UHGV virus genome: UHGV-0096010
Length of the DNA: 24,017 bases
DNA from: a virus
Direction: 5' to 3' (one strand)
A model generated the notes under the pieces. It was not told the DNA's origin, searched no databases, and was given only the letters and a program-made list of their open reading frames with translations. Positions 1-23,125 of the stretch are shown here, piece by piece. Position 1 is the stretch's first letter. Every line of letters begins with the position of its first letter. The position numbers and the translations under genes are program-made.

Positions 1-49
1 GCCTCTTTTATGATTATCTCGTTACAGAGCGTTTCATAGGCGTTTAAGG

Positions 50-727: not shown

Positions 728-774
728 AATTTGTAATCCTTATTTAAGGGGGCTAAACAGCCCCACAGTGATGA

Positions 775-2616
775 TTAATAGGTTGACCCGCCTGACATAA
801 CACCCAGCGTTAATAGCTTGCTAAACTCAGCGGAGGATGCCTTTGATTTGAAGTCGATAAATTCGCTCAATCGTCCGGTGTCTGATTCGATAGTTAGCGG
901 CACTTCTGCATTTACTTGTAATTCTGGATTGAAGTTAATAACAGGTGCAAAGGTGTAAGAAGGAGTCTTGATAGCTTGTTGTGCTGCACTCTGTTTCAGA
1001 TTTGCAATGTTTTGTCCTTCGAGAGTGTATTGATTTACAGCCTGCGCCCCGCCTACCGTTTCTTCTGGCGTAAACCAGCCTTTAATAGTGTTAAACAGGG
1101 AATTGCTGTTATCTGGCTTAGTTGTTCCGGTGCCAGCGCCTTTATATTGATCAGGAACGAGATTAGAAAGATTCTGTTTCATCCCTTCGTTAGACAGTGG
1201 CGGTGCATCACCTAAATTCTTCTGAATAGCTTCCGTCTTCTCGTCGTTTTTCATCAGCCAGTTGATTGCTTTCATTACGGCGTTAACCAATCCGCCGATA
1301 GCCTCGCCTAATTTGGTAAACATTGGCAGCATTGCAACCATACTCTTTTTGAACTCTTCAATCACAGCAGGATCGAGAGATTTCATAAAGCCATCAACAA
1401 AGGCGATCCCTTGTGAGTCAGAAAGCCCACTAAGTGCATTATTCAGTTCACGGAATTTAATAACGCTTTCCTGTTGTGCCTGTGTTACCCAGCGCCCTGA
1501 TTCTCGTTGTTCTCGTGCTGATTGTTCCACTTCTTTAGCGGAGCGTGTCCAGTATTTAGAGGTGAGCATCAAATCATCAGCCAGATCTTCCAGACGACTA
1601 CCGATTTGTGCATCTGAATAGCCTTTAGCTACCATTCCCTGAACTGCTTTACTAACCAGACCAGCCGGATTATCAGCAAAGTCTTTTAGATCCTTTTTAG
1701 TTAGGAATCCTTCATTCATTAAAGTATTGATGCCGCTATCGCCGCCCTTCCATTCTCCTTTACCAGTTTTCTTATCAACTACATATTCAGCTTCATCATA
1801 AGATTTGGTTGCACGTTCACGCACATCTTTCATCTGATCCAGATACTTACGTTTACCTTGTTCGCCCATCATTGAATCAACGCCGTTTTTATACGCCCAT
1901 TGTTCAACATCGTTCATCTGGTTAACGTCTACACCGCCCAGCTTCGCACGGCTATACAATTCACCCAGCGTTTCAGCATTCGCAAAGCTGTTAGTAACAA
2001 ATTCAGAGGCTTTGCTCATAGCCATATACGTAGCGCCAGCGCCTAAGCCACCCAGCATAACAGCCGCAGCACCGCCGCCAATACTCCCGCTACCCTTAAC
2101 AGGTGCATAGGCTTTAGCGTGAGCGTTACGATTGCCATTAATCTTACGTTGTTGCTGTTGTAGGCGTTTCATTTGGCTATTCATACGTGCCAGACTAATA
2201 GCGCCTCTTTCATATTGGAGGGCAATTTCTCTAGCCTGTGCAATAGCTTTATATTGTTCCGCTACAGAAAGACGGTGCATTGCACTAATGCTTGATCCAA
2301 CGTCTAAAAGCTTTAATTCTGCCTTCTCTTTGCGTGCTGCCAGGGCTTTTTGTTCTCTTGCAACTACACGTTGAGCGGCTAATTGTGCTTTAGCATTGGC
2401 TTTATCTGCCTGTGCTTGCTTTTTAGCAATATCGTCTACGTCTTTTTTTGCTTTAGCGGTTGATTGTTTATGTGTCTTAACACGCAATTCTATATCTTTC
2501 ACCGCCGCCATTTGTTTACGAAGTTTTTCTACTTCTGCTTTTGCTTTCTCTAATGATGGTCGATCAACCTGGAAGGTGACAACGTTTGATAAGCGGCTGA
2601 CGTTAAGTTCTAACAT
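775..2616 (-). CDS. tape-measure-like / minor structural protein (613 aa)
   Basis: ATG at 2616 with AGGGAAA SD; N-terminal ~170 aa K/A/E/Q-rich (coiled-coil-like); central Gly-rich hydrophobic stretch GSGSIGGGAAAVMLGGLGAGATYMAM; composition typical of phage tape-measure proteins; family not verified. Confidence 0.45.
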   Translation of the reverse strand: MLELNVSRLSNVVTFQVDRPSLEKAKAEVEKLRKQMAAVKDIELRVKTHKQSTAKAKKDVDDIAKKQAQADKANAKAQLAAQRVVAREQKALAARKEKAELKLLDVGSSISAMHRLSVAEQYKAIAQAREIALQYERGAISLARMNSQMKRLQQQQRKINGNRNAHAKAYAPVKGSGSIGGGAAAVMLGGLGAGATYMAMSKASEFVTNSFANAETLGELYSRAKLGGVDVNQMNDVEQWAYKNGVDSMMGEQGKRKYLDQMKDVRERATKSYDEAEYVVDKKTGKGEWKGGDSGINTLMNEGFLTKKDLKDFADNPAGLVSKAVQGMVAKGYSDAQIGSRLEDLADDLMLTSKYWTRSAKEVEQSAREQRESGRWVTQAQQESVIKFRELNNALSGLSDSQGIAFVDGFMKSLDPAVIEEFKKSMVAMLPMFTKLGEAIGGLVNAVMKAINWLMKNDEKTEAIQKNLGDAPPLSNEGMKQNLSNLVPDQYKGAGTGTTKPDNSNSLFNTIKGWFTPEETVGGAQAVNQYTLEGQNIANLKQSAAQQAIKTPSYTFAPVINFNPELQVNAEVPLTIESDTGRLSEFIDFKSKASSAEFSKLLTLGVMSGGSTY

Positions 2617-2650
2617 GCTAATTGTTTCCCTGTATTATGATTGTTGTTTA

Positions 2651-2848
2651 TTATTGTTTTTTAGAGCAATAGTATTGAATTGCTTCGAAAGTGCTGCATC
2701 CAGTCTGAAAGACACGCTGACGCACATTATTTGCATCAATTTCTAAAAGGCGGCAAAGCGCCGATGTGTTTATAACTGATTCCTCGCTAATAGCTGCCAG
2801 TTCTTTTACAGATTTAAGAATTAATGCCTGTGAATTTTCTGCGTTCAT
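2651..2848 (-). CDS. small hypothetical protein (65 aa)
   Basis: short ORF between the 343-aa and 613-aa genes, same strand; position compatible with a tail-assembly chaperone but no direct evidence. Confidence 0.3.
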   Translation of the reverse strand: MNAENSQALILKSVKELAAISEESVINTSALCRLLEIDANNVRQRVFQTGCSTFEAIQYYCSKKQ

Positions 2849-3002
2849 TGGTTTTCTCTCACATATATATTTTTATTTGGGTTTGTAGACAGTAGAAAAA
2901 AATAAGGGCAAGAGACAGCGCATATTTTGCTTATATGATTATCCCTTACCCTTATTGCCCCGATTATTTCCAGACGATGGGGAATCGTCTATTAACGCTT
3001 TA

Positions 3003-4034
3003 TTACGCAGCAGATCCGAAGATGATAGCTTGCGGAATGTTGTTTACTGGCAGATAAGATGTCTCAGTAACCACAGATGGGAATTGGAATTCATCCTTGA
3101 TTAGATATTGGTGATGTAACACGGCATCTTGACCTAACTCAGCATGACGCACACCAACGCCGCTATGAAGCTGATAGCACTGTGCCGCTTTATCCATTAC
3201 TGGAACAATTGCGAAACCGTTCTCTCCGATGTGAGCAACAATCTCAGGAAACATTGACACATCAATAACAGTGATCCCACCAATCTGGAAAGAGTCATAG
3301 GCTGGGTTAGAATCAACCATACGGGTAAACAGGGCCGTAGCACTCGCATCACCTGCATATTTCACCATGTCACTGATCAGCGGGTTAGATGACAAACCAT
3401 CAGCAGCAGCGCCAGCAGCAAAGATAATTACACCAGTTCGCTTTGCAGCAAGACCAGACCCCAGCTTTTCACTCTGTAAGCGCACCGCTTTACGAATAGC
3501 AAGGAACGGGTTAACAGTAGTCGATGCAAAGTCGATAGCGGGTACCGTGGTTTTAGCCTGACCGTCGAGGAAGTCGAGATCACCTTGTCCGGCATATTCA
3601 GATTCAACTTTCAGGCCCAGCAGCGCGGTAATCAGATCCACTTCAACACGGTTTGCGTGTGAACGGTAATGAGCCTCAGAGAAATCATTAACCGCTACCA
3701 GCATAGCATCAGAACGGTTTGGATATTGGCGGCTGTATTGTTCCAGGTCACGAGAAGTAACAGCGTTAATACTGCCGACGTGTTTCATCTGGAAAAGTTT
3801 GTTTGACCATTCCTGACGTTTAGAGGCGTTCCAGTCGCTTTGAGCGTAAGGCGAGGTTTCCCCAGCTACCTGCACAAACTGATCAATCAGGTCGGTAAGA
3901 AGAATGCTGTTTTCTGTATGATATTGCACATCGAACAGATCGAGATTAGTAATCAGGGTATTAAGTGCATTCTCATAAGCAAATGGAGTTACTACCGCAG
4001 TATTAACGCCAAAATATGTTGATAAATCATTCAT
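3003..4034 (-). CDS. hypothetical structural protein (343 aa), candidate major capsid or major tail protein
   Basis: ATG at 4034 preceded by AAGGAA SD; large ORF in co-directional block; no catalytic or nucleotide-binding motif seen; assignment by size and context only. Confidence 0.5.
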   Translation of the reverse strand: MNDLSTYFGVNTAVVTPFAYENALNTLITNLDLFDVQYHTENSILLTDLIDQFVQVAGETSPYAQSDWNASKRQEWSNKLFQMKHVGSINAVTSRDLEQYSRQYPNRSDAMLVAVNDFSEAHYRSHANRVEVDLITALLGLKVESEYAGQGDLDFLDGQAKTTVPAIDFASTTVNPFLAIRKAVRLQSEKLGSGLAAKRTGVIIFAAGAAADGLSSNPLISDMVKYAGDASATALFTRMVDSNPAYDSFQIGGITVIDVSMFPEIVAHIGENGFAIVPVMDKAAQCYQLHSGVGVRHAELGQDAVLHHQYLIKDEFQFPSVVTETSYLPVNNIPQAIIFGSAA

Positions 4035-4048
4035 TATTATTTTCCTTG

Positions 4049-4432
4049 TTAAGTCGTAGGGATCGCAAGTTCTTCATAACCAGCAATTACAAAGCCGAGA
4101 GATTGCAGTTTTGCAATAACACTTGCCTTTTCCATACTGTTAAATTCAATCCCATCTTCAGCCAGAATAACGAAAGTAGGATGTGCAACCACTACGCTTT
4201 CCTGTCCTTCATAAGCCGGTTCAACCACTACGTGAGCAATATCAGAAGCGGTTGTTGCTTTGGTGCCATCGGCTTTCAGCAAAGCCCCGACAATAAGATC
4301 GTCAGTGAGAGGTGAAGCCAGTTTGACGAGGCGATCTTGCAGCACTGGATCAGCAGCGTAAGCTACTACCTTACAGCGTGAACGGGAATTATCCGCATTC
4401 ACTGCTTTTAATTTTCCATATGGGTTAGCCAT
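4049..4432 (-). CDS. hypothetical protein (127 aa)
   Basis: ATG at 4432 preceded by AAGGAA SD; 14-bp gap to downstream 343-aa gene (operon-like packing). Confidence 0.45.
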   Translation of the reverse strand: MANPYGKLKAVNADNSRSRCKVVAYAADPVLQDRLVKLASPLTDDLIVGALLKADGTKATTASDIAHVVVEPAYEGQESVVVAHPTFVILAEDGIEFNSMEKASVIAKLQSLGFVIAGYEELAIPTT

Positions 4433-4436
4433 AAGA

Positions 4437-4634
4437 TTATTTTCCTTTCAGTTGTTTAATTTTAGATTTAAGGGCATCAGCAAGACTAACCGCATCAGCC
4501 GATTTAAATAATTGAGCAGTGGTAGAACGAAGACTTTCGGGAGTAACTCCCAACAGTGCGGCAACCTTAATGAGGTTTTCATCACTAACAATCATCGTTT
4601 CCCCGTCTTTGCTGATAATCATTTCTTGTTTCAT
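4437..4634 (-). CDS. small hypothetical protein (65 aa from internal ATG)
   Basis: ORF-track start at 4676 is TTG; in-frame ATG at 4634 (MKQEM...) has AGGAA SD 8 nt upstream, so the shorter form is preferred. Confidence 0.35.
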   Translation of the reverse strand: MKQEMIISKDGETMIVSDENLIKVAALLGVTPESLRSTTAQLFKSADAVSLADALKSKIKQLKGK

Positions 4635-5615
4635 AAATAACGTTCCTGTTAGTGCCAGACAAATAAAAAGCCCCAATGCCGTAAGAGGTTCTGACCAGCA
4701 AAGGGGCTTTAACGTGCGGGCAATTACATAATTGATAAGTTAAACTATAAGAGGATTAAACATATCAGCAAATACACTTTTTAAATATACTTGATGATAT
4801 GCTTAAAGGGTGAATAGATACTCCTGAAAACATGCTCTTAAGAAAACATGCGGAATCAATCAGGAATATCTATTCGGGGCGCGGTGGCTAACCGCTATCT
4901 TTCATGGTGTGGATGCACCAGTCAGATTTTAAGGAATCACTATTCCAATCTACTCACAGATTAAATTTTTAATAAGGATTAACTACACCAACAGTAATCT
5001 ACCGTTTCAGAAAATCGTTTCACAACCAAAGATTATAGATCCGCATTCTATAAAACCCGTTTTGCTATCAATATTTCCAAAGTTTATTGCACCATTCTTA
5101 GCTAAACTCTCTCTACTTGCGGCTAACGCTATGCAGATGATAGTTTTTTGACAACAACTTAATAGATTATTCTGTTACTAACTTCCGTCATTAAATAAGA
5201 GTTTAATGATGTTAGTAAATAGTTATAAAATATAACTATCAGTGTAAGGCTCTTTAATGTTTTCGGACAAAATAAGGAGCTTTAGGATAAGCATAGATGA
5301 AAAATAAGAGCGGGAAGGGCAAGGAGATAACACCTACCCGCTTTTATCAAAAATTAAGCACAATGCCTAACAACATTCATCAACACAACGTAGAAACAAT
5401 CAACAATCAAAGAGGGAGTTATGATTATTCTAAAACTTCTTGATAGATGGAAGGTAATATTTGTTAGAGGTTAATGCCACTCAACCTTTGAGGCTATCAC
5501 CTTCCATATGCAGGGATTTATGACAGTAGAAGGATTAACACCAACTAAAATCTTTTAATCTACCCCTAAAATTATTATATAACAAAATCATCATAAATGC
5601 AAATGATTTTCATTA

Positions 5616-5918
5616 TCATTTAGAGAAAATAGCACTTTTTGCTAAATCATTTACTAATTGCTGAATCTCTTCACTTGCAGCCTTTAACGTGCTGGCGGTG
5701 TCTGTGATGGTTTGAGTGCACATCTTGGCATCTGATAGCTCTAAATCGCTCACCAGAGAGACAAAATCTTCTAAGCATACATTGAGCTTCATTAAGCTAA
5801 TAACGCATTGAGAGAGCGTATAATCGCATAAATCTGAATAGGCTTGATTTATTCTTGTTTGTAGTGAGATAGTCAGATCTAAAAGTTGTTCCATTGCATT
5901 GCTAATATCTTCTTCCAT
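5616..5918 (-). CDS. hypothetical protein (100 aa)
   Basis: ORF whose ATG overlaps the stop of the upstream gene by 1 nt (TAATG), indicating coupling. Confidence 0.35.
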   Translation of the reverse strand: MEEDISNAMEQLLDLTISLQTRINQAYSDLCDYTLSQCVISLMKLNVCLEDFVSLVSDLELSDAKMCTQTITDTASTLKAASEEIQQLVNDLAKSAIFSK

Positions 5919-6163
5919 TATGCGTATTCTCCTTGTAATGCATCATTAATCATATTCAATACGATGTTAAAAGGTGTCTTGAGCGTCAGCACTTCATCAC
6001 GGTAACGTTCTAATGCTTCGTAGTCTTCTGTTTCTTTTGCCAGCCGGATTAACTCAGCATAGTTTTTTGCATCAGACAGGAGCATCTGAAATAATTGTGT
6101 TTCTTGAATATAGCCAATCATTATTTTTCCTTTTTCGAATATTTTCATTGGGCGCTTATACAT
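5918..6163 (-). CDS. hypothetical protein (81 aa)
   Basis: ORF in same-strand small-gene cluster; no clear SD; start uncertain (ATG at 6163 or 6148). Confidence 0.3.
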   Translation of the reverse strand: MYKRPMKIFEKGKIMIGYIQETQLFQMLLSDAKNYAELIRLAKETEDYEALERYRDEVLTLKTPFNIVLNMINDALQGEYA

Positions 6164-6178
6164 ACGCCCGTCTTTCTA

Positions 6179-6559
6179 TTAGTTAGAACGTTTGTTAGAT
6201 GCGAGAGTGTCGATCAGGTGCTGCATCAGATCTGTTTCTGTAACGCCGCCTACCTGATTGTTGAACGAATTGAAGCCTGTATAGTGACGAAATGAGGTAA
6301 AGCCTAACAATTGCCATTTCTTCAATGTGCCAGGTTCTATAATCGTTGTCTTTCTTGTTCTGGGTTTGAAATACACACCATCACCCATTGATTGAATAAT
6401 TTCTAATTCTTCGTTTGTAAGTGGTGGGCTGTTAGATTCTAAAATGAAGACTATCTCTTCACCTGCTTCTTCATTATTCTTATAAACTTGCTTTCTTACG
6501 TCGTTGAAGGTGTTCCCTTGCTCAATACGTTTTAAGTTGTTCTTTTTCTTTCTTCCCAT
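6179..6559 (-). CDS. hypothetical protein (126 aa)
   Basis: ATG at 6559 preceded by AGAGGGAAA SD; basic N-terminus MGRKKK. Confidence 0.45.
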   Translation of the reverse strand: MGRKKKNNLKRIEQGNTFNDVRKQVYKNNEEAGEEIVFILESNSPPLTNEELEIIQSMGDGVYFKPRTRKTTIIEPGTLKKWQLLGFTSFRHYTGFNSFNNQVGGVTETDLMQHLIDTLASNKRSN

Positions 6560-6693
6560 TTTCCCTCTTTTTATGTGGATTATAAAAACTGAATGCCATA
6601 GTTACGATGAATATTGCTACAAATGCACTTGCCATATGTATTGCCCGATCTGTTGTTACTGATTGTTTGTGATGTTATAAATCATTTATTTCC

Positions 6694-7263
6694 TTAAAAG
6701 GGTAGTGAATCATATATTGTGCTCTCACTTTTGAGATCAATTATCAAAGAGTCAAAATCATTTTCACAAAGATAGATATTCTTTGAATCTAATGCTCGTT
6801 TTACAAAATCTTCTGTTTCTTCGTGCGGTGGTTTCTTCTTATCAAGGGAAAGAAGCCAAGTAAAAATTTCGGGCCGCTCAGGGAACTCTGGCTCTTGTGT
6901 TTCTTCTTCAACGATGATTTCGGAAACATTCAATATTTCATTAGATTCGTCTTCTTTCTCAGAAGGATCAGGTAGTGATGATTCTCCTTTTGGAATATCA
7001 AGCACTCGATAAAGGTTAGAGCTTCCTGGTCGTGCATCTTTTATAATTAATCCCATTTCGAGCAATTTCTTAACCCTTTCTTCTGCTGCTCTTGGTGTTA
7101 TGCCAAAAACATCGCCTATCTTAGCGTAAGAGGGAAATGCACGATCAAACCCTCTCAGATAGCAGTAAAGGTTTTTAGCACTATCTGTAAATTTATGCCC
7201 GTTTACTTGGCTTATTTTTAGAATCCACATAGGAACTTTTACAAATTGTTCTTCATTAATCAT
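6694..7263 (-). CDS. winged-helix/HTH DNA-binding protein, replication-initiator-like
   Basis: preferred ATG at 7263 (MINEEQ...) with AAGGAG SD; N-terminal pattern F.K.P..L......KLY.YL......FPS...I....G.....A...V..L...GLI resembles phage/plasmid Rep-type HTH domains; acidic C-terminal half; family not verified. Confidence 0.4.
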   Translation of the reverse strand: MINEEQFVKVPMWILKISQVNGHKFTDSAKNLYCYLRGFDRAFPSYAKIGDVFGITPRAAEERVKKLLEMGLIIKDARPGSSNLYRVLDIPKGESSLPDPSEKEDESNEILNVSEIIVEEETQEPEFPERPEIFTWLLSLDKKKPPHEETEDFVKRALDSKNIYLCENDFDSLIIDLKSESTIYDSLPF

Positions 7264-7316
7264 TAAAAATCTCCTTGATGTAATCACGCTCTACGGCGCT
7301 ACTATGGTGATAAAAA

Positions 7317-7487
7317 TCACTTGCTTTTGTTTGAGAGTGTTTCAGCCTCTCTTTTCAACATATCAAGAATGTAATCTGTAACAGTGATACGTTTACTTCT
7401 GGCTTCTTTAAACAACACCTGAAATACTTCATCAGGAATATGAAAGCAAGTGCGTGGTTGCCTTTTCTTTTCTGTAGTTTCGCTCAT
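7317..7487 (-). CDS. small DNA-binding protein, ribbon-helix-helix-like
   Basis: preferred ATG at 7487 (MSETTEKK...) with GGAGAA SD; segment RTCFHIPDEVFQVLFKEARSKRITVTDYILDML looks like a beta-strand plus two helices as in CopG/Arc-type repressors. Confidence 0.4.
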   Translation of the reverse strand: MSETTEKKRQPRTCFHIPDEVFQVLFKEARSKRITVTDYILDMLKREAETLSNKSK

Positions 7488-7506
7488 AGTTTTCTCCTTC
7501 TCTTCT

Positions 7507-7707
7507 TTACTCTGTTTCAGATTCTTTTTCAGATCCTTTTTCATTTTTTCTTAATTCATCAATAATTTTTAGTGCATCGTCAAAGCATTTTTCACGCTCT
7601 GGATAACCACAGCGTCGCGCTGTGTTCCTGTTCATCCTTACTTTAAAACGGTTGATCTCACCACGTTTCCAGGCTTCCACAATATCCTGTGGAGTGAAAT
7701 ATTTCAT
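7507..7707 (-). CDS. hypothetical protein (66 aa)
   Basis: ATG at 7707 preceded by strong AGGAGG SD; first gene of the leftward small-gene cluster. Confidence 0.45.
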   Translation of the reverse strand: MKYFTPQDIVEAWKRGEINRFKVRMNRNTARRCGYPEREKCFDDALKIIDELRKNEKGSEKESETE

Positions 7708-7950
7708 TAATTAACCTCCTATTCTATTTAGTTAAAAGAAATAGACACCTTGCAAGCCTTGGGCTTCAAAGTGCGATGCATTGGTTTAATTATTTAAAGG
7801 ATAAGAATGTTTTCCTGCCCCTAATATTACTTTACCACGACTAAAGGCTTTTGTCAACCCCCCAGCCATAAAAATATTGATCATTTTCAGTGTGTTATGA
7901 TTTTTCTTAGCAATTCGTGCTCTTACGAATACTCCAATTCTTCATTATTG

Positions 7951-7980
7951 TCTAAAACGCTCTAAAACGCGTTCTAACGA
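7951..7980. repeat. tandem 10-bp direct repeat (TCTAAAACGC x2 plus degenerate third copy)
   Basis: read directly from sequence. Confidence 0.6.
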
Positions 7981-8550
7981 GGTTTTGATAAAAACAATAC
8001 ATTCCCTTATGTAATGGCTGTTTAGCTCGCCTACGGTTTGATTTAAGCGGTAGAAACTCATCTACTACCTAACATCTTTAAACCATATTTTTCTTTTTTG
8101 TCTGTTTGATGGTTGATCTATAGTTATGCGTTAGCATCCCCAAAGGGGTAACGCTACCCTAATTGCATTCGCAAGAACATTGCACAAGAAATTTATTTTA
8201 GATGATTGATGATCGTTAGATGGTAGTTAGTTAATTATCGTTCTGCGCACAGCGCAAGACTATTTAGCCTTACGCAAGCCGTAGGCTATTTGCACATAGT
8301 AGATTACATATTCGTTGTGAGCGGAAAGCGAACATAGATCTACTAACTAACATTAACAAACAAAAACTATGTGTTATGAGAAGTATCAGTCTAACTGACT
8401 AACACTCTAACTTGTGCAAGGTTCTGGCGAATGCCAATAGATTAAGGGATAGTCGAAGACTCCCTAACGGGTATCCCTATAATTATTCTTTAAAGATAAA
8501 AGAATTTATAAAAGATAATTTAATTGTAGTTTGATAGTTGATCTAATAGG

Positions 8551-8687
8551 TAACAAAATTCTGTAGGGGTGGCTAACAGTTTTCTGTGGGGGTGTCTAAC
8601 ATAATTCTGTTAGGGTTGGGGTAACAGTTTTCTGTTAGGGTGCATATTTCTTTAAAAGTTAAGGATAACAGAATTCTGTGGGGGTAG
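8551..8687. repeat. iteron-like array: five direct repeats of ~21 bp, core TAACA-N3-TTCTGT-N-GGGGT
   Basis: copies at ~8551, 8574, 8597, 8622 and 8666; four are tandem with ~22-25 bp period, the fifth follows an AT-rich gap; non-coding context 0.8-1.3 kb from the Rep-like gene. Confidence 0.6.
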
Positions 8688-9641
8688 CTCACAGTGACCT
8701 ACCGTTACATCCATCACATAACATCTGTGCAATGATCTTCTTATAATCAGTAAAAGTCTTTCTTGCTATCAAAAATTAAACATCTAAAACAAGCTTAAAT
8801 TCAAGATTAATTGATGATTAATCCCTGTGTAATTCCATACTAAAAAATCCAAGAAAAATGGCTTCAAAATGCAATTCTTACTTTCTTCACTTTTGCGTCA
8901 TCATCAGCAAAGCCTTATGTTATGCGGCATATAGCGCATCACTGCAAAATTGTTGCTCAATAAACGTTCTATCATTTGTTGAACAAGTTCTTTCACGTGT
9001 TGAAAATTTATGTTTAAATTTGCTTTCAATCTTTAATGTGCAATCACTATCAACATAAAAATAAAAAACCTTCCATTATATTTCATAGCATACAAAAGTC
9101 AATAGAAGCCCTCTCGTGCTCCTACGTAAAAAATCCACCATTTTTCCCCTGATACATCAACTCAAGGCGTTCTATGTGTTCCTTAGTGCATATTACGATT
9201 ATTATGTTAAATGGATTTTGGCCTATATTTTGACCTGCACCCGCATAAACACTGGTTTCATCGCTTACAGCCCTTGTGAGACGTGGTGCTGTTTCTAGCA
9301 TCTGATCCGACATAAAACCGATCATTCTCGTGTTTAGTGAAAGTTTAGTGAGAGACATTACAGAAAGGCTTTCTGTGTAATGATTTAATAGGTAAAAACG
9401 ATGTTGATTACGCAAGAAAATTCCTTGCTGATATTTGGGGATTCTGGATTTTCCAGATCGGGGGGCGCTGAAAATCGCGTTAAGCACTTCTCGCAATCTA
9501 GCCATAAGGGAAGGGATATAGGTATTTAGATGTATTTATAGCTATTTATTTTTTATTTATCTTTATTTAAAAATAACCTTATAAATCAATAATATACAGA
9601 ACAATCTGTTTATATTTTAATCAATTAAATCAAGTTTAATA

Positions 9642-9674
9642 CCCTTAAATACCCTAAAAATAGCCTTAAATACC
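9642..9674. repeat. two copies of CCTTAAATACCC spaced 21 bp apart in an AT-rich tract
   Basis: read directly from sequence; a partial third copy (TAATACCC) lies just upstream. Confidence 0.45.
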
Positions 9675-9839
9675 CCAATAATTAATTTTAAGGCTTTCCG
9701 TGTTCTCTTCTGCATTATGAAAATGCAAAATAAGGCACAAAACAAGCTCACAGACGCATTAAACACACATCACCTACACATCCCTATACCAAGCAATGAA
9801 AACAGCGTTATAATGCGTCCTGTTGCGTTCTGGAGATTT

Positions 9840-9998
9840 TCAGAAATCCTCTCTAAGCCATTTCAACTCACTAAGGAGTTTTCTTTCTTCGTTCTCTCGT
9901 TGCTTACGCTCTAGCCAGGCTTTTCCTTCTGGCGTAGACAGGAACTTACGAGCGTGAATCTTGCGGTTATTACGTTTGATAGCTGCAATGTTTTTCAT
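9840..9998 (-). CDS. small basic hypothetical protein (52 aa)
   Basis: ATG at 9998 with AGAGG SD 7 nt upstream; translation MKNIAAIKRNNRKIHARKFLSTPEGKAWLERKQRENEERKLLSELKWLREDF; not in ORF track because it is under 60 aa. Confidence 0.25.
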   Translation of the reverse strand: MKNIAAIKRNNRKIHARKFLSTPEGKAWLERKQRENEERKLLSELKWLREDF

Positions 9999-10603
9999 CG
10001 TGTGCCTCTGTATTCATATGAAAATTAACAAGTTACATACTACACAGGGAGACTACGCATAAAACACAATACAAGTAAAGATACATTTTCAAGACAATAG
10101 GAGCCATAAAGCGCCTTTGATGGTTATACCAAAAAATAAGCGCCGTAGGCGTATCCACTAAAAAGGGCTTTTTCACAAAAGCTATGAAGTCTTAGCAGTT
10201 CTTCTCTTATCAGGCACCCGTTGTACTCCGGTGGACGAAACCGTGCTAGAGCTTGATTCTTTCCCGATCAAGTTAGGTTTTGAAGAGGTGGGCTTTAATC
10301 CACTATTGCACTTAAAACTCTTCCCATCATTTAGCCTGTTTATCCTCTGCAACGTCTCACGACGTGTAGCATCATTGGACACCGCGCCAGGTGTGGAACA
10401 TCTTGCTAAGAGTTTTGGTAGAAGGTTTAGAGACGGTGGCACGTCTTCCAGCTTCAAAGGAACTTGTTACGAGGTTGAGCCTGGGAACTACTCGCCCATA
10501 CGTGTTACACTACCAAAGCCCATAACAACGTATAGGCGTTTGTAAGTGATAACAGAAGATACAATTTCTTAGAGAAGTTAAGCTAAGTTATTGATTTTCT
10601 TGA

Positions 10604-10649
10604 TGGTGCCGATAATAGGAGTCGAACCTACGACCTTCGCATTACGAAT
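10604..10649 (-). tRNA. 3-prime 46-nt fragment of a tRNA-Thr(CGU)-like gene (anticodon-loop through CCA); integrase attachment-site type repeat, not a complete tRNA
   Basis: minus-strand reading ATTCGTAATGCGAAGGTCGTAGGTTCGACTCCTATTATCGGCACCA shows a T-arm (GTAGG/TTCGACT/CCTAT), acceptor 3-prime strand, discriminator and CCA; sequence upstream of it cannot form the D-arm or 5-prime acceptor strand; matches from memory the 3-prime half of enterobacterial thrW. Confidence 0.6.
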
Positions 10650-11048
10650 TATAAGAATCCGCTTCTAATTCAAAGCATTACCCCATCAACACTGCGCTCA
10701 CACGTCCCACCACATCAAAACATGTAAAGCCTTGCAAGTCATTGCGAGGCCTTATGTGTCTCAGTTTTGTCCCACCTTGTATTACGACTTGCATAGCCAA
10801 TGAAGATAAATGTGACGACAAACGGCGCAGCAGTCTTCTTTTCCTTCATACTTTCCCCACCCAGCATGCATACCTTCTACCATAACTGTAGTGAATGTCT
10901 GTTATGAGCGAAAAGCGGACAGGAACATTCTGGTTAATAGATATCAATGCTAACAAAAAAGCTCCCGATGGAGATTTTGAAACCGCTTCCACATAATGAG
11001 ATAAAAGGATTTATTTCTGGTCATGCCCACACATTGACCACGTCGAAG

Positions 11049-11077
11049 TAAGTAGCTCCGCTTCGCGGAGTTACTTA
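11049..11077. other. strong palindromic hairpin (13-bp stem, 3-nt loop) downstream of the SIR2-like gene
   Basis: GTAAGTAGCTCCGC / TTC / GCGGAGTTACTTA; no flanking U-tract on either strand, so not a canonical intrinsic terminator. Confidence 0.35.
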
Positions 11078-11175
11078 AGATAATTTCTATGTAGTTCCAT
11101 GCTATGATTTAATTTTCAAGTTACAAAATCTAAATCTACAAATGTCCATTTGGGTGTAAAATTACACAATCCTAT

Positions 11176-13501
<2,326 letters not shown>

Positions 13502-13802
13502 TTTAATTACCTTATATATCCAAACTCTTAATTTTCTCTTTTTTACCATAGGATTAATCCAAAATAAAGACCTTGTTGACTAAACCCTCATGTACAAAAT
13601 GCACACTTACTCAAAAGGATCTGGAGGTAATCTCGACCTTCATGATTTAGTTCCTAGGGATAAGCAGAAATCTAGCACTGGATTAAAATTTAAAAATAAT
13701 AATCAATAGGTTATAATGGTTTTTATTCGCATCCATGGGATCTGCTGCTGCCCGCATGATGTTGGATGCGACGGCGATGGCACGACCTCACCCGGTGAAA
13801 CG

Positions 13803-14249
13803 ATGAAACGCGAAAGGGTTGTTCTTCGGGAAGGTGCAGTTGGACTTTCAATCGATGCCGTTGCAAAAGAGGCTGGCGTCAGTAAGGCAACGGTAATGTA
13901 CGATCATAAGTCAAAGCAAGATTTGCTCAGCGATCTCATCAGTCGCCTTATGCCAGTAGAGGAGGAACGTGTTCAGCAAGCGATAGCGGAAAGTAATAAT
14001 ACCCCACATCCCGCACTCTATGGGCGAATTATTTCAGCCAGTAATGCTCTCAGTCATACTGAGAGAGCAATAGTGCTGGCGGTCAGCGAATCGTTAACTA
14101 ACGATACGAATATCAGGGACACCATGCGTTCCTGCACAAACAAAGATTTGGATGAGATAAAAAGAGGACCAAAACCAGACGTTGCCGTCCTGGTATATTT
14201 GGCGTTATCTGGTATCTACTGCCAAGAATTTTTTGATTTTTACAAATGA
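13803..14249 (+). CDS. TetR-family-like transcriptional regulator (short, 148 aa)
   Basis: N-terminal HTH LSIDAVAKEAGVSKATVMYDHKSKQDLL fits the TetR signature; preferred ATG at 13803 with GGTGA SD; the longer ORF-track start 13716 overlaps a TATAAT hexamer and is probably not coding. Confidence 0.5.
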   Translation: MKRERVVLREGAVGLSIDAVAKEAGVSKATVMYDHKSKQDLLSDLISRLMPVEEERVQQAIAESNNTPHPALYGRIISASNALSHTERAIVLAVSESLTNDTNIRDTMRSCTNKDLDEIKRGPKPDVAVLVYLALSGIYCQEFFDFYK

Positions 14250-14576
14250 TCTCCTGGCGAGCGAGATAAAATTATCGAAGGCATTCGCTGTTTGTATGAA
14301 TCATACCCTTATAAGTCTGAATAAATAATGTCTCCGGGAATGACATTTCATGTGCGACTAATTCGCGATATTCCTATACGTAAAGGTCCGCTTTTGGCAC
14401 ATAGCAGCCCTAGAGACAGTGGCGTAAAGTCATGGAGAATCGGTGGGAGGATATTCAGTTTCATTCATGCCGAAATACGGTAAAATCTATAACAGATAGA
14501 AATCATTCAATATTCGCACTATCAGAAGCTGGCCAGCCAGCCGCAGCACTTTCTTGCATACGACGAGCCTGCGGTT

Positions 14577-15131
14577 TCATTTATCTCCGACCGGAAACTT
14601 CTTATACAGTGTCGATACACCAACATCATAGATGATCGCCACCTTCTGGCGAGGAATTCCTGCTGCAATTAATCGTCCGGCCTGCGCCCATTGTTCTGGT
14701 GTAAGTTTGGGACGACGTCCCCCAATTCGTCCCTGTGCGCGAGCAGCTTCCAGTCCAGCTTTTGTTCGTTCAATAATCAGTTCTCGTTCCATTTCAGCCA
14801 GGGCACCCATCACATGAAAGAAAAAACGCCCCATCGGTGTGCTGGTATCAATAGCATCCGTCAGGCTGCGAAAATTAACGCCACGTTCGCGCAACTCCTC
14901 AACCAGAATGACCAGATGCCGCATACTACGCCCCAGCCGATCCAGTTTCCAGACAACCAGTGTGTCACCTGCCGATAATGTCCTGAGCAGTTTTTTCAGT
15001 CCCGGCCTTTCGGACTTTGTACCGCTTATCTTGTCTTCAAAAATCAGCTCGCATCCTGCACAGTTCAACGCATTACGTTGTAGATCTGTGTTCTGGTCAT
15101 TTGTTGATACGCGTACATAGCCAATAAGCAT
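14577..15131 (-). CDS. pin: Gin/Pin/Cin/Hin-family serine DNA invertase
   Basis: start at MLIGYVRVSTNDQNTDLQRNAL; conserved VWKLDRLGRS, GRFFFHVMGALAEMERELIIERT and C-terminal HTH GIPRQKVAIIYDVGVSTLYKK; lies immediately beside an invertible tail-fibre segment. Confidence 0.9.
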   Translation of the reverse strand: MLIGYVRVSTNDQNTDLQRNALNCAGCELIFEDKISGTKSERPGLKKLLRTLSAGDTLVVWKLDRLGRSMRHLVILVEELRERGVNFRSLTDAIDTSTPMGRFFFHVMGALAEMERELIIERTKAGLEAARAQGRIGGRRPKLTPEQWAQAGRLIAAGIPRQKVAIIYDVGVSTLYKKFPVGDK

Positions 15132-15185
15132 GGTAGATCCCCCTGACAAAAGCAGGAATGATGCCATTTGCTCGTTATTTCTGCA

Positions 15186-15211
15186 TTTTCATAAACGTTG
15201 GTTTGAGAGAA
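15186..15211 (+). other. invertase crossover site (gix/hix-like), distal
   Basis: TTTTCATAAACG-TT-GGTTTGAGAGAA; imperfect 12-2-12 dyad matching the Hin/Gin site pattern, inverted relative to the partner site at 17052-17077. Confidence 0.7.
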
Positions 15212-15832
15212 GGTTCATTTGGGTTCAGAAATCTGGTTACCTTCACAACGGCTGGAGTAACAAGCTGGACTGTTCCTGAAGAGTTGCGCAAAGGAAGAAA
15301 ATGTTACGTCAAAGTTATTGGTGGCGGTGCGTCAGGAGGGATAGGTTCAACAACCGCTTCAGCCGTTACATGTGGCGGAGGAGGTGGTGGGGGCGGAGTT
15401 GCTGAGGGACTGGTAGATTTAACTGGTATAAACAGTGTTTCGATTACGGTTGGTGCCGGTGGTGCGCCTGTGTCTGGTATTTCTGTAAACGGTAAAAATG
15501 GTGGCTCGAGCAGTTTCGGGACTTACATGTCAGCTTCCGGAGGCTATAGCGGAGGCCAGCCTTCCGGAGGGTTAGGCGCAGTTGGTGTCGGGGGAACAAT
15601 TAATACATCGCTTGGGCCAGGTTCTCCAGGTTCCATTGCTTCTGCCGCATCGGGGGCTGGTAATGGTGGTTCTGGTGGTGGCCCCGGAGGAGCAGGTTCA
15701 TTCAGAGATACAGCTAACGGAAAAGCGGTATCAGCAGTTGGGCCTGGAGGTGGCGGTGCAGGATTATGTCCTAATTCATCAACGGGTCAGTCGGGTGCCG
15801 GAGCAGATGGCGCAGTTTATATTTACTGGTGA
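15200..15832 (+). CDS. alternative tail-fibre C-terminal cassette (silent orientation), glycine-rich
   Basis: open frame from the crossover site to TGA at 15830-15832; no start of its own; begins ...NVGLREGS like the expressed fibre at its crossover (...NLGLGEGS); Gly-rich with poly-G run, resembling adhesin-tip regions. Confidence 0.55.
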   Translation, partial: GLREGSFGFRNLVTFTTAGVTSWTVPEELRKGRKCYVKVIGGGASGGIGSTTASAVTCGGGGGGGGVAEGLVDLTGINSVSITVGAGGAPVSGISVNGKNGGSSSFGTYMSASGGYSGGQPSGGLGAVGVGGTINTSLGPGSPGSIASAASGAGNGGSGGGPGGAGSFRDTANGKAVSAVGPGGGGAGLCPNSSTGQSGAGADGAVYIYW

Positions 15833-15839
15833 GGTTCAT

Positions 15840-16010
15840 ATGTGGGCAAGAATTGAAGAAAATAAAGTAGAAGAGATAACGGAAATTAATCCTGAAGGAA
15901 GATTCCATCCATCATTAATATGGAAAGAATGCCCTGCTGACACACAGCAGGGGGATTTATATATTGATGGTGAGTTTATTGCGCAGTCTCCGGCAGTTCA
16001 GGCCAGATGA
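15840..16010 (+). CDS. small ORF (56 aa) downstream of alternative cassette; candidate alternative fibre chaperone or truncated tfa-prime
   Basis: ATG at 15840 with GGTGAGG SD 7 nt upstream; converges on and overlaps the 3-prime end of the minus-strand Tfa gene. Confidence 0.35.
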   Translation: MWARIEENKVEEITEINPEGRFHPSLIWKECPADTQQGDLYIDGEFIAQSPAVQAR

Positions 16011-16584
16011 CATCCGGCGCGGTGCTGGTATCTGTTGCCGTCACCGCGTCAATGTAATCCAGCACGGCGTTAAGTCGGGTTGTTTCTGCCAGCGTCAACT
16101 TCCGTCCGGCCTGTAATTTCAGCTGAATCAGACTAATGGAAGCCATTGCTGCATCAATCAGTGACTGGCGCTGTGCTTCTGCCGCGTCTACTGCGGCACT
16201 ATGCTGTGCCTCAGTATCGGTCACCCATTTCTCACCATCCCATTTATCATATGGCGTTAACGGGGCGATAGTGGTTGTATTTTCAGGGTAATCACCCGGA
16301 GCTGTGATTTCTTTCGATTCTCCTGTTTCGGTGCTATAGATGATTTCACCGCGATGGTCTGGCACATATTCCCATGAGTTAAAATCTGCAGAACGGCAGA
16401 TTGCATAACCAGTTTTGTATGAGCCAGGAGCATCTAAACAGGAACATGCCGGAATGCCGACACCCACAGCAAGATATTCATTTGAAGTGGAAATATATTC
16501 CCGTATTTCACCATCATAGTTATAGACGGTAATATTCCCTGCCTTCGTGGCAATAATCTCGCTATTTAATACAGCGTTATCCAT
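15976..16584 (-). CDS. tail fibre assembly protein (Tfa / gpG-gpU family)
   Basis: 202 aa; ATG overlaps H stop by 1 nt (TAATG); C-terminal region with W..KW.TDTEAQ...STAPDVIWPELP typical of caudoviral tail-fibre assembly chaperones. Confidence 0.75.
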   Translation of the reverse strand: MDNAVLNSEIIATKAGNITVYNYDGEIREYISTSNEYLAVGVGIPACSCLDAPGSYKTGYAICRSADFNSWEYVPDHRGEIIYSTETGESKEITAPGDYPENTTTIAPLTPYDKWDGEKWVTDTEAQHSAAVDAAEAQRQSLIDAAMASISLIQLKLQAGRKLTLAETTRLNAVLDYIDAVTATDTSTAPDVIWPELPETAQ

Positions 16585-17885
16585 TATGCAGCCCTCACAA
16601 TATAATTAAAGGCAATGTTACGTGGGCGGTTCTCATTTGCGGTTGGGACAACGGCTGAAGCATTAAAATTCGCATACAGGGAGCGTTGATACCCGGATGC
16701 TGATGCACCACTTAATGCGGGAGCTTTTGACTCCGAAGCCGAAAAGGCCCCTGACACGTATCCTAATAACCCTTGTGAATCGCCAATTGAACTGTAGCCA
16801 ACCACCCCGGTAATGTTTCGGATAGCATCTCCTTGTGCTGAAAGCAGAGTTCGCCCACTATCCACTCCCTTTCCACCATCCCAGCCACGAATAAACTCAC
16901 CGCGTAAATCAGGCAATTTTAACGTCGGGTAAGCCTTTGCCAGATTAGGGTAATCTTCAGCAGAAAAAGCCGCACCGTTGCATTTCAGCCAGCCTGTTGG
17001 CGGTGTGGCTGAAGGCCATGGAACAGGCACACCAACAGGCAGCGCAGAGCCTTCCCCTAAACCAAGGTTTTGTAGAAAAACAGAAACGTTTTCTATGTCT
17101 GAACCATTTGCCGATTTATCCATCTTTCCAGCGAGTGAATTTGTTACGGTGGTAGCAAAGTTAGGATCATTACCCAAAGCCGCAGCAAGTTCATTCAGCG
17201 TATCCAGCGCTTCAGGCGAAGAGCCAACCAAAGCAGCAATAGCAGCCTGAACGAAAGCTGTATTTGCAATTTGAGTAGAACTATCTTTGCCTTCCGCCGT
17301 TGGCGCAGTCGGCCTGCCAGTAAGAGCGGGACTTTCTTTTGGTGCGTATTGTTTATGCGGATCAGCCGCAGCTACATGCGCTGCCATTTTCTGATCAACA
17401 TAGCTTTTCACCTGGATGATCTGATCATCAACATACTGTCGGGTTGCCAGAACTACCGAAGGGTCAATTTTCAGCGTTACGGCAGCGGTGCTGCTGACAA
17501 TCAGGATCATGCGTACAACCTGTACGCGCCCGCTTCCCTCCTGTAACTGCGGCTTATACGTTTCCGCACAGTTGGCTACGGCAATCATATCGCCGTCTTT
17601 ATCGAATAAACCGATTTCACGGATCCACCACCCGCCCTCGTCTTCAGGGATCACCTGCTCGGCAATAATCTGGTTGGCGTTATTCGGGTCAATGCTCAGA
17701 CTATTAAGCGGCTTGCGGCGCAGCTCATGAACCAGCGCCGTTTGTGCCGGGTTCGGCGTCGGCAACACGCCGTTACCATCGCCTACAGCCATCTTGGTGA
17801 TTTCAACCTGCGCACCCAATGCCGTGGCATTTGCCAGTTTCGCCGCGCCCACATTGGTTAGCACGGCATAATATTTAGTCGCCAC
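16584..17885 (-). CDS. H: tail fibre protein, P2 gpH-like N-terminal domain with tail-collar-type C-terminal variable region
   Basis: N-terminus ...NVGAAKLANATALG...MAVGDG...AEQVIPEDEGGWWIREIGLFD...AVANCAETYKP...EGSGRVQVVRMILIVSS and internal TQIANTAFVQAAIAALVGSSPEALDTLNELAAALGNDPNFATT match remembered P2 H; C-terminal LPDLRGEFIRGWD collar motif; GTG at 17885 with GGAG SD preferred over ORF-track TTG at 17906. Confidence 0.8.
   Translation of the reverse strand: MATKYYAVLTNVGAAKLANATALGAQVEITKMAVGDGNGVLPTPNPAQTALVHELRRKPLNSLSIDPNNANQIIAEQVIPEDEGGWWIREIGLFDKDGDMIAVANCAETYKPQLQEGSGRVQVVRMILIVSSTAAVTLKIDPSVVLATRQYVDDQIIQVKSYVDQKMAAHVAAADPHKQYAPKESPALTGRPTAPTAEGKDSSTQIANTAFVQAAIAALVGSSPEALDTLNELAAALGNDPNFATTVTNSLAGKMDKSANGSDIENVSVFLQNLGLGEGSALPVGVPVPWPSATPPTGWLKCNGAAFSAEDYPNLAKAYPTLKLPDLRGEFIRGWDGGKGVDSGRTLLSAQGDAIRNITGVVGYSSIGDSQGLLGYVSGAFSASESKAPALSGASASGYQRSLYANFNASAVVPTANENRPRNIAFNYIVRAA
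17052..17077 (-). other. invertase crossover site (gix/hix-like) inside the tail-fibre gene
   Basis: minus-strand reading TTCTACAAAACC-TT-GGTTTAGGGGAA, encoding ...FLQNLGLGE...; partner of the site at 15186-15211. Confidence 0.7.
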
Positions 17886-18489
17886 TTGCGATCTCCACGG
17901 TGTCAATTAAATGGATTGCCGCCCCGGTGTAATCATCACCGCCCACGGCTATGGTTTCAGGAAAATACGGGTACACGGTTAGCGTATCGCCGGAATAACT
18001 GCCCGCGCCGATATACAGATCGCCGGTTGTTTGCAGGTGAAGAGACATTCCCAGCATATGACGGCTGCACGGCTTCACATCGGCGATCAGGCGTTCAAGT
18101 TCCTGATAGGTTTCTTCACTAATGCCCTGGTCTTCCACGCCAATATCCAGCGTGAAGGTGCCCGGTGCGGTGTCGATGTTCCACCACTCGTTAACCCGGA
18201 TGAAGAAGCCGAACGGCTCCACAACCCGGCGCATGGCGCCCGTTGTACCCTTGTACTTATGCAGGTAAAACGCATCGGCCACCGCCTTTCGTTTTGTGTT
18301 TATCGGCCAGGCCTCATCCCAGCGATCAACGGAGAAGGCCCACGCCAGATAGGGCAACAGATCAGCCCGACACGTCCACGGGTTCCACAACTGGCGCAGC
18401 GGCACGGGCACTTCACCCAACGACGCACAGACGCGCGCGGCGACGCGCTCCATTCGGCTGGCGCTGGGTGGTAACAGGTCATTACTCAT
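17875..18489 (-). CDS. I: baseplate assembly protein, P2 gpI-like
   Basis: preferred ATG at 18489 (MSNDLLPP...); LLPP...LW.PW.C...LLPYLAWAFSVD.W pattern of the phage tail protein I family; synteny J-I-H. Confidence 0.7.
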   Translation of the reverse strand: MSNDLLPPSASRMERVAARVCASLGEVPVPLRQLWNPWTCRADLLPYLAWAFSVDRWDEAWPINTKRKAVADAFYLHKYKGTTGAMRRVVEPFGFFIRVNEWWNIDTAPGTFTLDIGVEDQGISEETYQELERLIADVKPCSRHMLGMSLHLQTTGDLYIGAGSYSGDTLTVYPYFPETIAVGGDDYTGAAIHLIDTVEIASGD

Positions 18490-19393
18490 CGTAACCACCC
18501 ACCGTTATGGTGTATTCGGTGCAGTGCGATGCCTGGTAGTCACTCAGCACAATATCCGCAACAGGCTGCGCCAGTTCCACGCGCTGGACGCCTTCGACGT
18601 GCAGGGCGGCGTAGATAGCTGAAAGACGGATATCGCGCCCTAAGCGATTCTGCGCGGCAATATACGCCTGTAACTGCTGTTCCGATGCCTGCCGGACGGG
18701 TTCAGCTTCCGGCCCCGGATAGATGTAAAGCGTTGCATCAATCTGATACGGCACGATCTCCGCAGACTGCACCGTTACCCTGTCGGCCACCGGGCGCACT
18801 TCTTCATCGTTCAGGGCAGCAGCGACCACGGAAAGCAGATCATCGCTGGCCGTTCCGTCACCTTCGCGCGACAGCACCGAAATGGTGACGCAGGCAGGCG
18901 TAGGACTCACCGCCGAAATATCAGCTACGCGCCCGTCTGCTGAACGCCCCCAAAATTCATACGCCGCAGTTGGCCCGGCCACGCTCAGACCTTCAAAAGC
19001 CTGCTGGGTACGCGTGCGTAAATCTGGGTCTGACTCCATCACGGCTTCAATTGGCGGTGTAACGCTGTCGTCTTCTTCCTGAATGGTCAGACGTTCAACG
19101 TTGAAATTGACCGCCAGATTATCCAGATCGCTATCCGTGGAATAAGCCAGCATCACCGCGCGGGCTGCTTCATTCACCCGCTGGCGCAACAGCAATTCGC
19201 GATAGCAATTCTCTTCCAGCAGCATGGTGATCGGCTCCGATTCAAGCTCAAGCGTGCGGGCGATCTCTTCCTGCTCGTCTTCCGGGTACATCGCAATAAA
19301 TGCCGCCTTGCGCTGCGCGAAAAGCGTTTCGAAGTCCAGCGGTTCAACCACCACGGGCGGCGGTAGCTGCGATAAATCGATCGTGCCGCTCAT
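18482..19393 (-). CDS. J: baseplate assembly protein, P2 gpJ-like
   Basis: 303 aa; N-terminus IDLSQLPPP...EPLDFETLFAQRKAAF...YPEDEQEEIARTLELESEP...LLEENCYRELLLRQRVNEAARAVMLA closely matches remembered P2 J; ATGA overlap with W. Confidence 0.85.
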   Translation of the reverse strand: MSGTIDLSQLPPPVVVEPLDFETLFAQRKAAFIAMYPEDEQEEIARTLELESEPITMLLEENCYRELLLRQRVNEAARAVMLAYSTDSDLDNLAVNFNVERLTIQEEDDSVTPPIEAVMESDPDLRTRTQQAFEGLSVAGPTAAYEFWGRSADGRVADISAVSPTPACVTISVLSREGDGTASDDLLSVVAAALNDEEVRPVADRVTVQSAEIVPYQIDATLYIYPGPEAEPVRQASEQQLQAYIAAQNRLGRDIRLSAIYAALHVEGVQRVELAQPVADIVLSDYQASHCTEYTITVGGYDE

Positions 19394-19740
19394 GCCTGGC
19401 CCCTCAATGTAATATCAGCGTTAAATGGCGTCTGATTGTCGGTGCGATTGGCCTGGATAGTGGCAACCAGCCGACCGGCACCCGGCGCGCTCAGGGTGAT
19501 ACTGGTCAGAGAGATCCGCGGTTCCCATAAATACAGGGCGCTGTAGATGGCAGACATAACGCGCAGCTTCGTTATGGCGTTATCTATCAGGTTGAAAAGC
19601 TGCGAACCGTAAGCGCGGCGCATTACACGGGAACCGATCGGCGTTAACAGAATATCGCCGATAGACTGCGCTATATGCTCGTTGTCGGTGATGGCATGGC
19701 CTGAACTGGCATTCATGCCGCTGTAACGGACTGTACTCAT
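19390..19740 (-). CDS. W: baseplate protein, P2 gpW-like (gp25/GPW family)
   Basis: 116 aa; ...HI.QSIGDILLTPIGSRVMRRAYGS... typical of the GPW/gp25 family; synteny V-W-J. Confidence 0.8.
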   Translation of the reverse strand: MSTVRYSGMNASSGHAITDNEHIAQSIGDILLTPIGSRVMRRAYGSQLFNLIDNAITKLRVMSAIYSALYLWEPRISLTSITLSAPGAGRLVATIQANRTDNQTPFNADITLRGQA

Positions 19741-20366: not shown

Positions 20367-20504
20367 AGTGCTGACTGTTTCCCGTGGTGCCGGTTACGCT
20401 GTCCGGCGTCGTTTCCACCCGGTAGCAGGCTTTACGACCGTTTCGGCTTTTGGGTTATGCAGTCAGTATCAGGAGTCGCGCGCGCGCAAACAACGCGGCA
20501 CCCT

Positions 20505-20522
20505 TGTGGCGGGTTGGTGACA
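20505..20522 (-). promoter_or_regulatory. P2-type late promoter activator site (TGT-N12-ACA dyad) upstream of gene V
   Basis: minus-strand TGTCACCAACCCGCCACA in the S-V intergenic gap; a -10-like GATACT lies where expected if the dyad is centred near -55; this matches the remembered architecture of Ogr/Delta-dependent late promoters. Confidence 0.55.
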
Positions 20523-20523
20523 A

Positions 20524-23115: not shown

Positions 23116-23125
23116 ACCCTCCCCC

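Follow-up and report, generated by a model that had tools for sequence, protein, structure and literature searches.

The tRNA gene thrW is among the most-used tDNA targets in E. coli, and P22, ST104 and ST64T are documented integrators at this gene. According to the SfIV genome paper, each end of the prophage carries a 46 bp att site that is identical in SfI and SfV, and the conversion genes adjoin int-attP. More than one element can occupy the gene. Tandem lysogeny of SfX and SfI at thrW has been made experimentally, and in this case the second phage entered the attL of the resident prophage. Islander handles regenerated tDNAs, displaced tDNA fragments and tandem arrays as routine, and separates crossover subsites in the anticodon loop from those in the T-region.

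We examined a locus of this kind in a 24,017-nt stretch of DNA, the whole of which we call the window. An exact match to the tail-fibre assembly protein was found in a single contig, NODE_69 of ENA ERZ1303392, a short-read contig of 116,658 nt with a coverage of 5.7x. Window positions 5976-24017 are identical throughout to the final 18,042 nt of this contig, and its end coincides with window position 24017. The window is thus the terminal 24,017 nt of a contig that extends only toward pao, placing the proA/thrW side off the contig.

The thrW fragment and the adjoining arm

The features at the junction are the following:

1-10603, minus strand: left island, approximately 12 kb in full, with 99.7% identity to its CFSAN029787 counterpart, which adjoins an intact thrW
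10604-10649, minus strand: thrW fragment and P22/Sf-type att common core, identical to thrW at 46 of 46 positions, with an identical core in free-phage attP
10604-10622, minus strand: nested 19-nt core ACTCCTATTATCGGCACCA, corresponding to tRNA nt 58-76 and starting in the T-loop; proximal repeat of the left island
10650-10922, no strand assigned: attP-derived arm, homologous to attP and separated from int by the core in the free phage
10729-10770, plus strand: hairpin and T-run within the arm, found in a scan for terminator-like sites

The minus strand from 10649 to 10604 reads ATTCGTAATGCGAAGGTCGTAGGTTCGACTCCTATTATCGGCACCA and is a displaced 3' piece of thrW, 46 nt long. It matches the last 46 nt of E. 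coli thrW, tRNA-Thr(CGU), at every position, using the proA-adjoining tRNA-Thr of CFSAN029787 and TB06052 as the reference. In tRNA numbering the 46-mer covers nt 31-76, from the anticodon loop to the CCA. It begins with the final base of the 5' anticodon-stem strand, the loop with CGT, and the 3' stem strand; the remainder is made up of the variable loop, T-arm, 3' acceptor strand, discriminator, and CCA. Alignment with the intact tRNA-Thr showed that divergence begins directly 5' of ATTCGT (alignment A1). This pattern occurs once in the window when up to three mismatches are allowed and was not found in 100 shuffled windows. A first-pass annotation of this DNA had read the minus strand as a perfect 3' half of a tRNA-Thr(CGU)-like gene. 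The 46/46 match to thrW confirms the 3' half and makes the relationship closer than mere similarity, since this is the exact 3' end of the E. coli gene.

The sequence next to the fragment resembles the attachment region of known phages. Positions 10604-10774, which comprise the core and the first 125 nt of the arm (171 nt), are 96.5-97.7% identical to the attP of SfII, SfI, and SfIV, and positions 10604-10919 are 91.8% identical over 316 nt to Escherichia phage phi458. The SfII record annotates this region as 'attachment site attP; similar to P22 bacteriophage attP'. Identity to the thrW 3' end covers exactly 46 nt in the attP sites of three free phages, SfII, phi458, and the P22-like ST64T, and TTCTTATA precedes the 46-nt core in all three as it does in the window. 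The gene order in SfII and ST64T is int, core, arm, and cargo (gtrA, gtrB, and a type-specific gtr). The window contains the 46-nt core, the homologous arm, and accessory cargo directly beyond the arm that characterize a P22/Sf-type att site. The end of a P2-type prophage would instead have an att next to P2-type int or ogr/D genes at a P2 attachment locus, which is not what flanks the fragment; the closest P2-like prophages (0H26 and CX12) are located at fieF. The arm is common to the window, TB06052, 18AR0366, phi458, and CUPF06 up to ...GAGCGAnnAGCGGA at approximately position 10922, beyond which the cargo differs from genome to genome (alignment A2).

The hairpin in the arm is nearly invariant in seven of seven aligned att arms, and a 'terminator' is annotated beneath the match in SfII (KC736978). 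In the circular phage this hairpin would be located just downstream of int, across the core, and it is a candidate terminator or retroregulator of int.

The left island and the stacking of elements at thrW

Window positions 1-10649 are 99.7% identical to CFSAN029787, in which the match ends within an intact tRNA-Thr that is followed by proA and proB. At its far end, the CFSAN029787 island carries a gene for a tyrosine integrase 425 aa long with DUF6538 and Phage_integrase domains, adjoining paoD. The position of this gene is equivalent to just left of window position 1. The left island in the window contains the following features, with the protein assignments based on PHROGs and Pfam:

50-727: Dit-like protein
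775-2616: tape-measure-like protein
3003-4034: weakly capsid-like protein
6694-7287: replication-initiator-like protein
8551-8685: five iterons of approximately 20 nt, TAACAnnnTTCTGTnGGGGT

With its tail-like, capsid-like, and replication genes and its own integrase outside the window, the left island looks satellite-like. The iterons are located in a 3-kb gene-poor, AT-rich part of the island and likely form a candidate replication origin that matches the initiator-like ORF upstream. The island is widespread. Its copies following intact thrW share 99.5-99.7% identity across many strains, and its 613-aa protein is listed in 1,169 blocks of the collection (index). At one locus (L012), a Peptidase_S6 autotransporter gene follows the left island, and the island may belong to a thrW pathogenicity island that is already known (VAT-PAI / PAI-thrW).

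The nested 19-nt core is repeated at the other end of the island. In eight of eight comparison loci that include the far end, there is a second exact 19-nt copy just past the island's own integrase, and in L001/CFSAN029787 the distal repeat and the copy in thrW are 12,085 bp apart. The length of the proximal thrW copy varies with its neighbor. It is the full 76 nt when proA adjoins (L001, L008, L009, L012, and L013). TB06052, L010, and the window have a 46-nt copy, the neighbor in L010 being gtrA/glycosyltransferase, and L011 has a 36-nt copy with another integrase gene as its neighbor. Truncation of thrW thus goes together with the presence of an additional element on the proA side of the island. 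In the source lineage the 19-nt repeat is expected approximately 1.45 kb to the left of the window, and the longest flank ends approximately 600 bp short of this site. This flank, 10 kb long, comes from related contigs found via a strain-specific 127-aa ORF, the other left-block proteins being too common to single out the source contig. The integrase gene is present to the left of the window in contigs of the same lineage.

Two complete genomes provide the layout around this junction. In TB06052 the order is proB, proA, intact thrW, Int, a prophage of approximately 42 kb, the arm, the 46-nt fragment, the left island, its integrase, and the 19-nt repeat. The arm in this strain is 97.6% identical to that of the window, and its Int is 99.5% identical to SfIV Int and 89.5% identical to ST64T Int. 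CUPF06 matches the window without a single difference along 251 nt across the junction. It contains a 47,957-bp lambda-like prophage between two 46-nt repeats, with a 372-codon gene for an SfIV-type integrase beside the right one. The right copy, on the proA side, is also only a 46-nt fragment, indicating that at least three elements are stacked there. Among 5,426 complete E. coli genomes, 31 contain the composite junction of island flank, core, and arm, and two independent contigs from metagenomes contain it as well. Many genomes match the core and arm only, showing that the P22/Sf-type junction is common without the left island. In the window itself, no tyrosine integrase was found in positions 10650-24017, and we infer that the intact thrW and the integrase of the right element are located past the contig end in the source genome.

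Other material also occurs next to thrW 3' copies. P4-like satellites with a retron-like reverse transcriptase, psu, and ogr/delta are located directly downstream of such copies elsewhere: after the 46-nt fragment in 18AR0366 (L003 12842-16594) and after the 19-nt distal repeat in L013 (14251-21842). This shows that a third integrase type is present in the thrW array. Two Logan contigs from related samples (L022 and L023) both end 29 nt into the core, at the equivalent of 10604-10632. Counting the shared T after the CCA, the break comes at 30 nt, which is k-1 if k is assumed to be 31. With this value of k, the breaks would imply that those samples contain another thrW 3' copy with a different downstream flank.

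The lengths of the repeats suggest that the two elements belong to different crossover classes. The right element, with identity from nt 31, would be of the anticodon-loop class, and the left island, with identity from nt 58, would be of the T-region class.

Cargo, invertase and the P2-like block

The part of the window beyond the arm contains the following features:

10897-14404: 3.5-kb cassette made up of the Kongming operon and a divergent TetR gene
11176-13501, minus strand: Kongming defence operon, the cargo adjoining the arm
11176-11970, minus strand: komC (Pfam SIR2_2; PADLOC ThsA-type SIR2)
11970-12524, minus strand: komB, a HAM1-type pyrophosphatase (Pfam Ham1p_like)
12521-13501, minus strand: komA, an adenosine deaminase (Pfam A_deaminase; PADLOC CARF_ADA deaminase domain)
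13716-14249, plus strand: TetR-family regulator (Pfam TetR_N), divergent from the Kongming operon
14577-15167, minus strand: Pin-type serine DNA invertase, pinE-like (Pfam Resolvase and HTH_7)
15158-16584, no strand assigned: tail-fibre region next to the invertase, holding the homology overlap described below
15158-15832, plus strand: Gly-rich alternative tail-fibre C-terminus
15976-16584, minus strand: tail-fibre assembly gene
16584-24017, minus strand: P2-like late genes H, I, J, W, V, S, R, lysis genes, X, and L, running to the contig end

The published diagnostic residues of Kongming are all present in the three proteins. These are H15 and H17 in KomA, N9, K12, E15, and H65 in KomB, with H65 standing in place of the catalytic Asp, and H146 in KomC. 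This complete set identifies the cargo as a Kongming operon. The TetR regulator is outside the published description of the system. The cassette recurs with identical ends in Rac-like prophages at other chromosomal loci, and window positions 10896-15212 match the 18AR0366 thrW locus at 99% identity. The Kongming operon occupies the classic lysogenic-conversion slot beside attP, where Shigella phages carry O-antigen genes.

The slot between the arm and the Pin invertase (10923-14385) is a hotspot of cargo exchange with a sharp left boundary, as seen by comparison with L002, L003, L015, L018, and L019. It contains Kongming in the window, gtr genes in the Sf and P22 phages, and a type II restriction-modification system with a GIY-YIG protein in LD26-1 and CUPF06, while TB06052 and phi458 carry different genes there. 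The 18AR0366 locus has 3.1 kb of additional DNA, encoding a beta-flower protein, an Abi-like protein, and a frameshifted integrase, between copies of an overlap of approximately 24 bp (window 10896-10919).

The invertase is 99% identical to the copy in the 18AR0366 thrW locus, and the order of arm, cargo, pin, and tail fibre is also found in phi458, LD26-1, and TB06052. Window positions 14541-16666 are 96% identical to the thrW-resident prophage of LD26-1. From position 15988 on, the best matches are P2-like prophages at the fieF locus (0H26 and CX12) with 98-99% identity. These fieF-locus prophages have their own invertase and their own ends, with ogr/D at one end. Because the LD26-1 match runs to 16666 and the P2-like match starts at 15988, the switch between the two must be in the shared tract of approximately 680 bp between these positions, in the region of the tail-fibre assembly gene. 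The block that follows is 95.7% identical to Salmonella phages SEN4 and SEN5, and the contig end at 24017 falls within P2 gene L. The right element is thus mosaic in its body: only P2-like late genes were found after the invertase, with no structural genes of the SfV/lambda type.

The linkage of the P2-like block to the att flank comes from one assembly and passes through the tail-fibre repeat. No complete E. coli genome covered at least 80% of the window and the join was not reproduced among these genomes. One independent contig (L021, 99.96% identity) ends at the equivalent of 16270, within the shared tract, and in another (L020) the match stops at 16663, where a tail-fibre variant without a match takes over. 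A search around the tail-fibre segment for inverted repeats of at least 14 nt, as expected of Pin crossover sites, found none; a Pin-mediated origin of the join is thus unsupported. The P2-like block may reflect a true recombinant or hybrid, a rearrangement, or an assembler walk through the repeat that produced a chimeric contig, and the right element may accordingly be defective, rearranged, or partly mis-assembled. A true hybrid could consist of a P2-type structural module that acquired a P22/Sf-type thrW module of int, att, cargo, and pin. In each case the distance from the join to the tRNA fragment exceeds 5 kb, and the reading of the fragment stays the same.

Origin of the junction and comparison with known systems

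Based on these comparisons, the 46-mer is very probably the thrW 3' fragment at the attR of a P22/Sf-type integration, abutting a resident island whose 19-nt core is nested within it. A P22/Sf-type Int would recombine the 46-nt phage core, equal to thrW nt 31-76, with the chromosomal thrW. The strand exchange is placed at the anticodon loop because identity starts there, and this position should be regarded as probable. The phage copy would rebuild an intact thrW beside int on the proA side, and the original 3' part of thrW would be displaced to the far end of the prophage, preceded by cargo and arm. The window matches this distal geometry, with the Kongming cargo, the arm at 10650-10922, and the core at 10604-10649. 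Beyond the core is not chromosomal backbone but the presumably older island of approximately 12 kb, an element that uses the same tRNA with a different integrase, as known from the comparison genomes. The fragment would thus be a composite tandem junction that combines the attR of the right element with the proximal att of the left island, the island presumably having inserted first.

The first-pass annotation had proposed that a tyrosine integrase duplicated part of thrW at the end of an element or at a tandem junction, and the attP match together with the layouts of TB06052 and CUPF06 supports this. Its placement of the fragment between two mobile blocks also holds, given that the left island follows intact thrW elsewhere and a truncated copy where an element intervenes. 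It had named the block on the right P2-like. The fragment is indeed a junction of mobile elements, but the attP match shows that the att module is of the P22/Sf type and not of the P2 type.

The same structure could have been built in the opposite order, with the P22/Sf-type element arriving first and the left island later entering the displaced 46-nt fragment through its 19-nt core. Either order yields exactly what is observed, P22/Sf-type junctions without the left island are common, and the 46-mer, which retains the entire 19-nt core and its T-stem context, is a plausible secondary target. This order is the one rival of any weight, but we regard it as unlikely. The island is very commonly found right after intact thrW in near-identical form, which looks like a resident state. 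Moreover, a P22/Sf-type element entering an island strain has one usable target, because the 19-nt repeat is without the anticodon loop, and the second phage in the SfX/SfI experiment used the attL of the resident prophage, which is the end with the rebuilt thrW.

It is highly improbable that the fragment is instead what remained of thrW after its 5' part was lost in a deletion or another illegitimate rearrangement. In other strains this crowded hotspot contains decayed prophages, IS elements, and integrase genes with frameshifts, but the breakpoint is exactly at the nucleotide where free-phage attP identity starts, approximately 270 nt of attP arm adjoin it, and the junction recurs in 31 complete genomes. 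This recurrence also bears on the idea that the junction was created during assembly from repeated tRNA sequence. Low coverage (5.7x) and short reads in the source contig, as well as the Logan contigs from related samples that break inside the core, are in keeping with such an artefact, yet CUPF06 has the identical junction, as do a further 30 complete genomes and two other independent assemblies, which leaves the artefact with almost no probability. A functional RNA gene formed by the fragment and its flank, such as a variant tRNA, a tRNA half, or another small RNA, has very little to recommend it. The Rfam tRNA model aligns end-to-end in a permissive scan, and GTTGATG, 41 nt upstream of the core, is able to pair with the acceptor 3' strand. 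However, this alignment scored 14.2 bits (E=7.4), far under the gathering score of 29, and the scan at gathering thresholds gave no match. ARAGORN found no tRNA genes in the entire window, the fold of 10604-10690 (87 nt) was no better than that of shuffled sequences (z = -0.60), and a search of the arm for a promoter-like site on the tRNA strand found none. The free attP sites are without an Rfam tRNA signal, and the pairing of GTTGATG with the acceptor strand is lost in the ST64T arm. We had considered the arm as a degenerate tRNA 5' half on account of this pairing, and treat the pairing as chance since it is not kept in ST64T. The tRNA finders thus recovered no complete cloverleaf such as a functional tRNA gene would have, in agreement with the earlier statement that no 5' half can be folded from the adjacent sequence.

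With displacement of the thrW 3' end by a P22/Sf-type element as the preferred reading, the fragment serves as an annotation landmark that places the boundary of two mobile elements to the base. From it one can also tell which integrase family delivered the right element, although the contig does not reach the integrase gene. There is a small chance that the nested att sites are functional. Int could then excise the right element alone, and the island integrase could excise the island alone or both elements as a composite circle, the latter by recombining the 19-nt core inside the intact thrW with the distal repeat. If true, a small island could travel with, or parasitise, any prophage that lands beside it.

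The closest described systems are the Shigella flexneri phages SfI, SfII, SfIV, and SfV. Their attP and attR sites share with the window the 46-nt core, an arm start that is 96.5-97.7% identical, and the order int-core-arm-cargo. The cargo differs, being Kongming and TetR in the window and gtrA, gtrB, and a type-specific gtr in the Sf phages. The arm of the window is also longer, continuing as in phi458 and E. coli prophages, and the window is without an integrase and has later structural genes that are P2-like rather than SfV-type. Salmonella phage P22 and its relatives ST64T, L, and BTP1 have the same 46-nt identity to thrW, the same TTCTTATA boundary, and gtr cargo beside attP, and ST64T Int is 89.5% identical to the TB06052/SfIV-type Int. 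By contrast, their arms have diverged past the first approximately 10 nt (alignment A3), and these phages are podoviruses of a different host genus. For the left island, a comparable element is CP4-6 at thrW in E. coli K-12, which has a distal thrW pseudogene fragment beside intF at its pao-proximal end. CP4-6 resembles the CFSAN029787 left island in having a far-end integrase and a short thrW 3' repeat, but it is much larger and has different content.

The tandem lysogen of SfI and SfX is similar to the window in that two elements are present at thrW with an att copy between them. Both of those elements are Sf phages, whereas here the inner element is an island of approximately 12 kb with a nested 19-nt core and, in the comparison genomes, a different integrase. 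Earlier publications already cover the att core and arm, this integrase family, the layout with cargo beside attP, and tandem occupancy of thrW. The junction is thus an ordinary, well-understood one that involves no new mechanism, and among tandem tDNA islands of the Islander type the window is one more instance, with no difference in kind.
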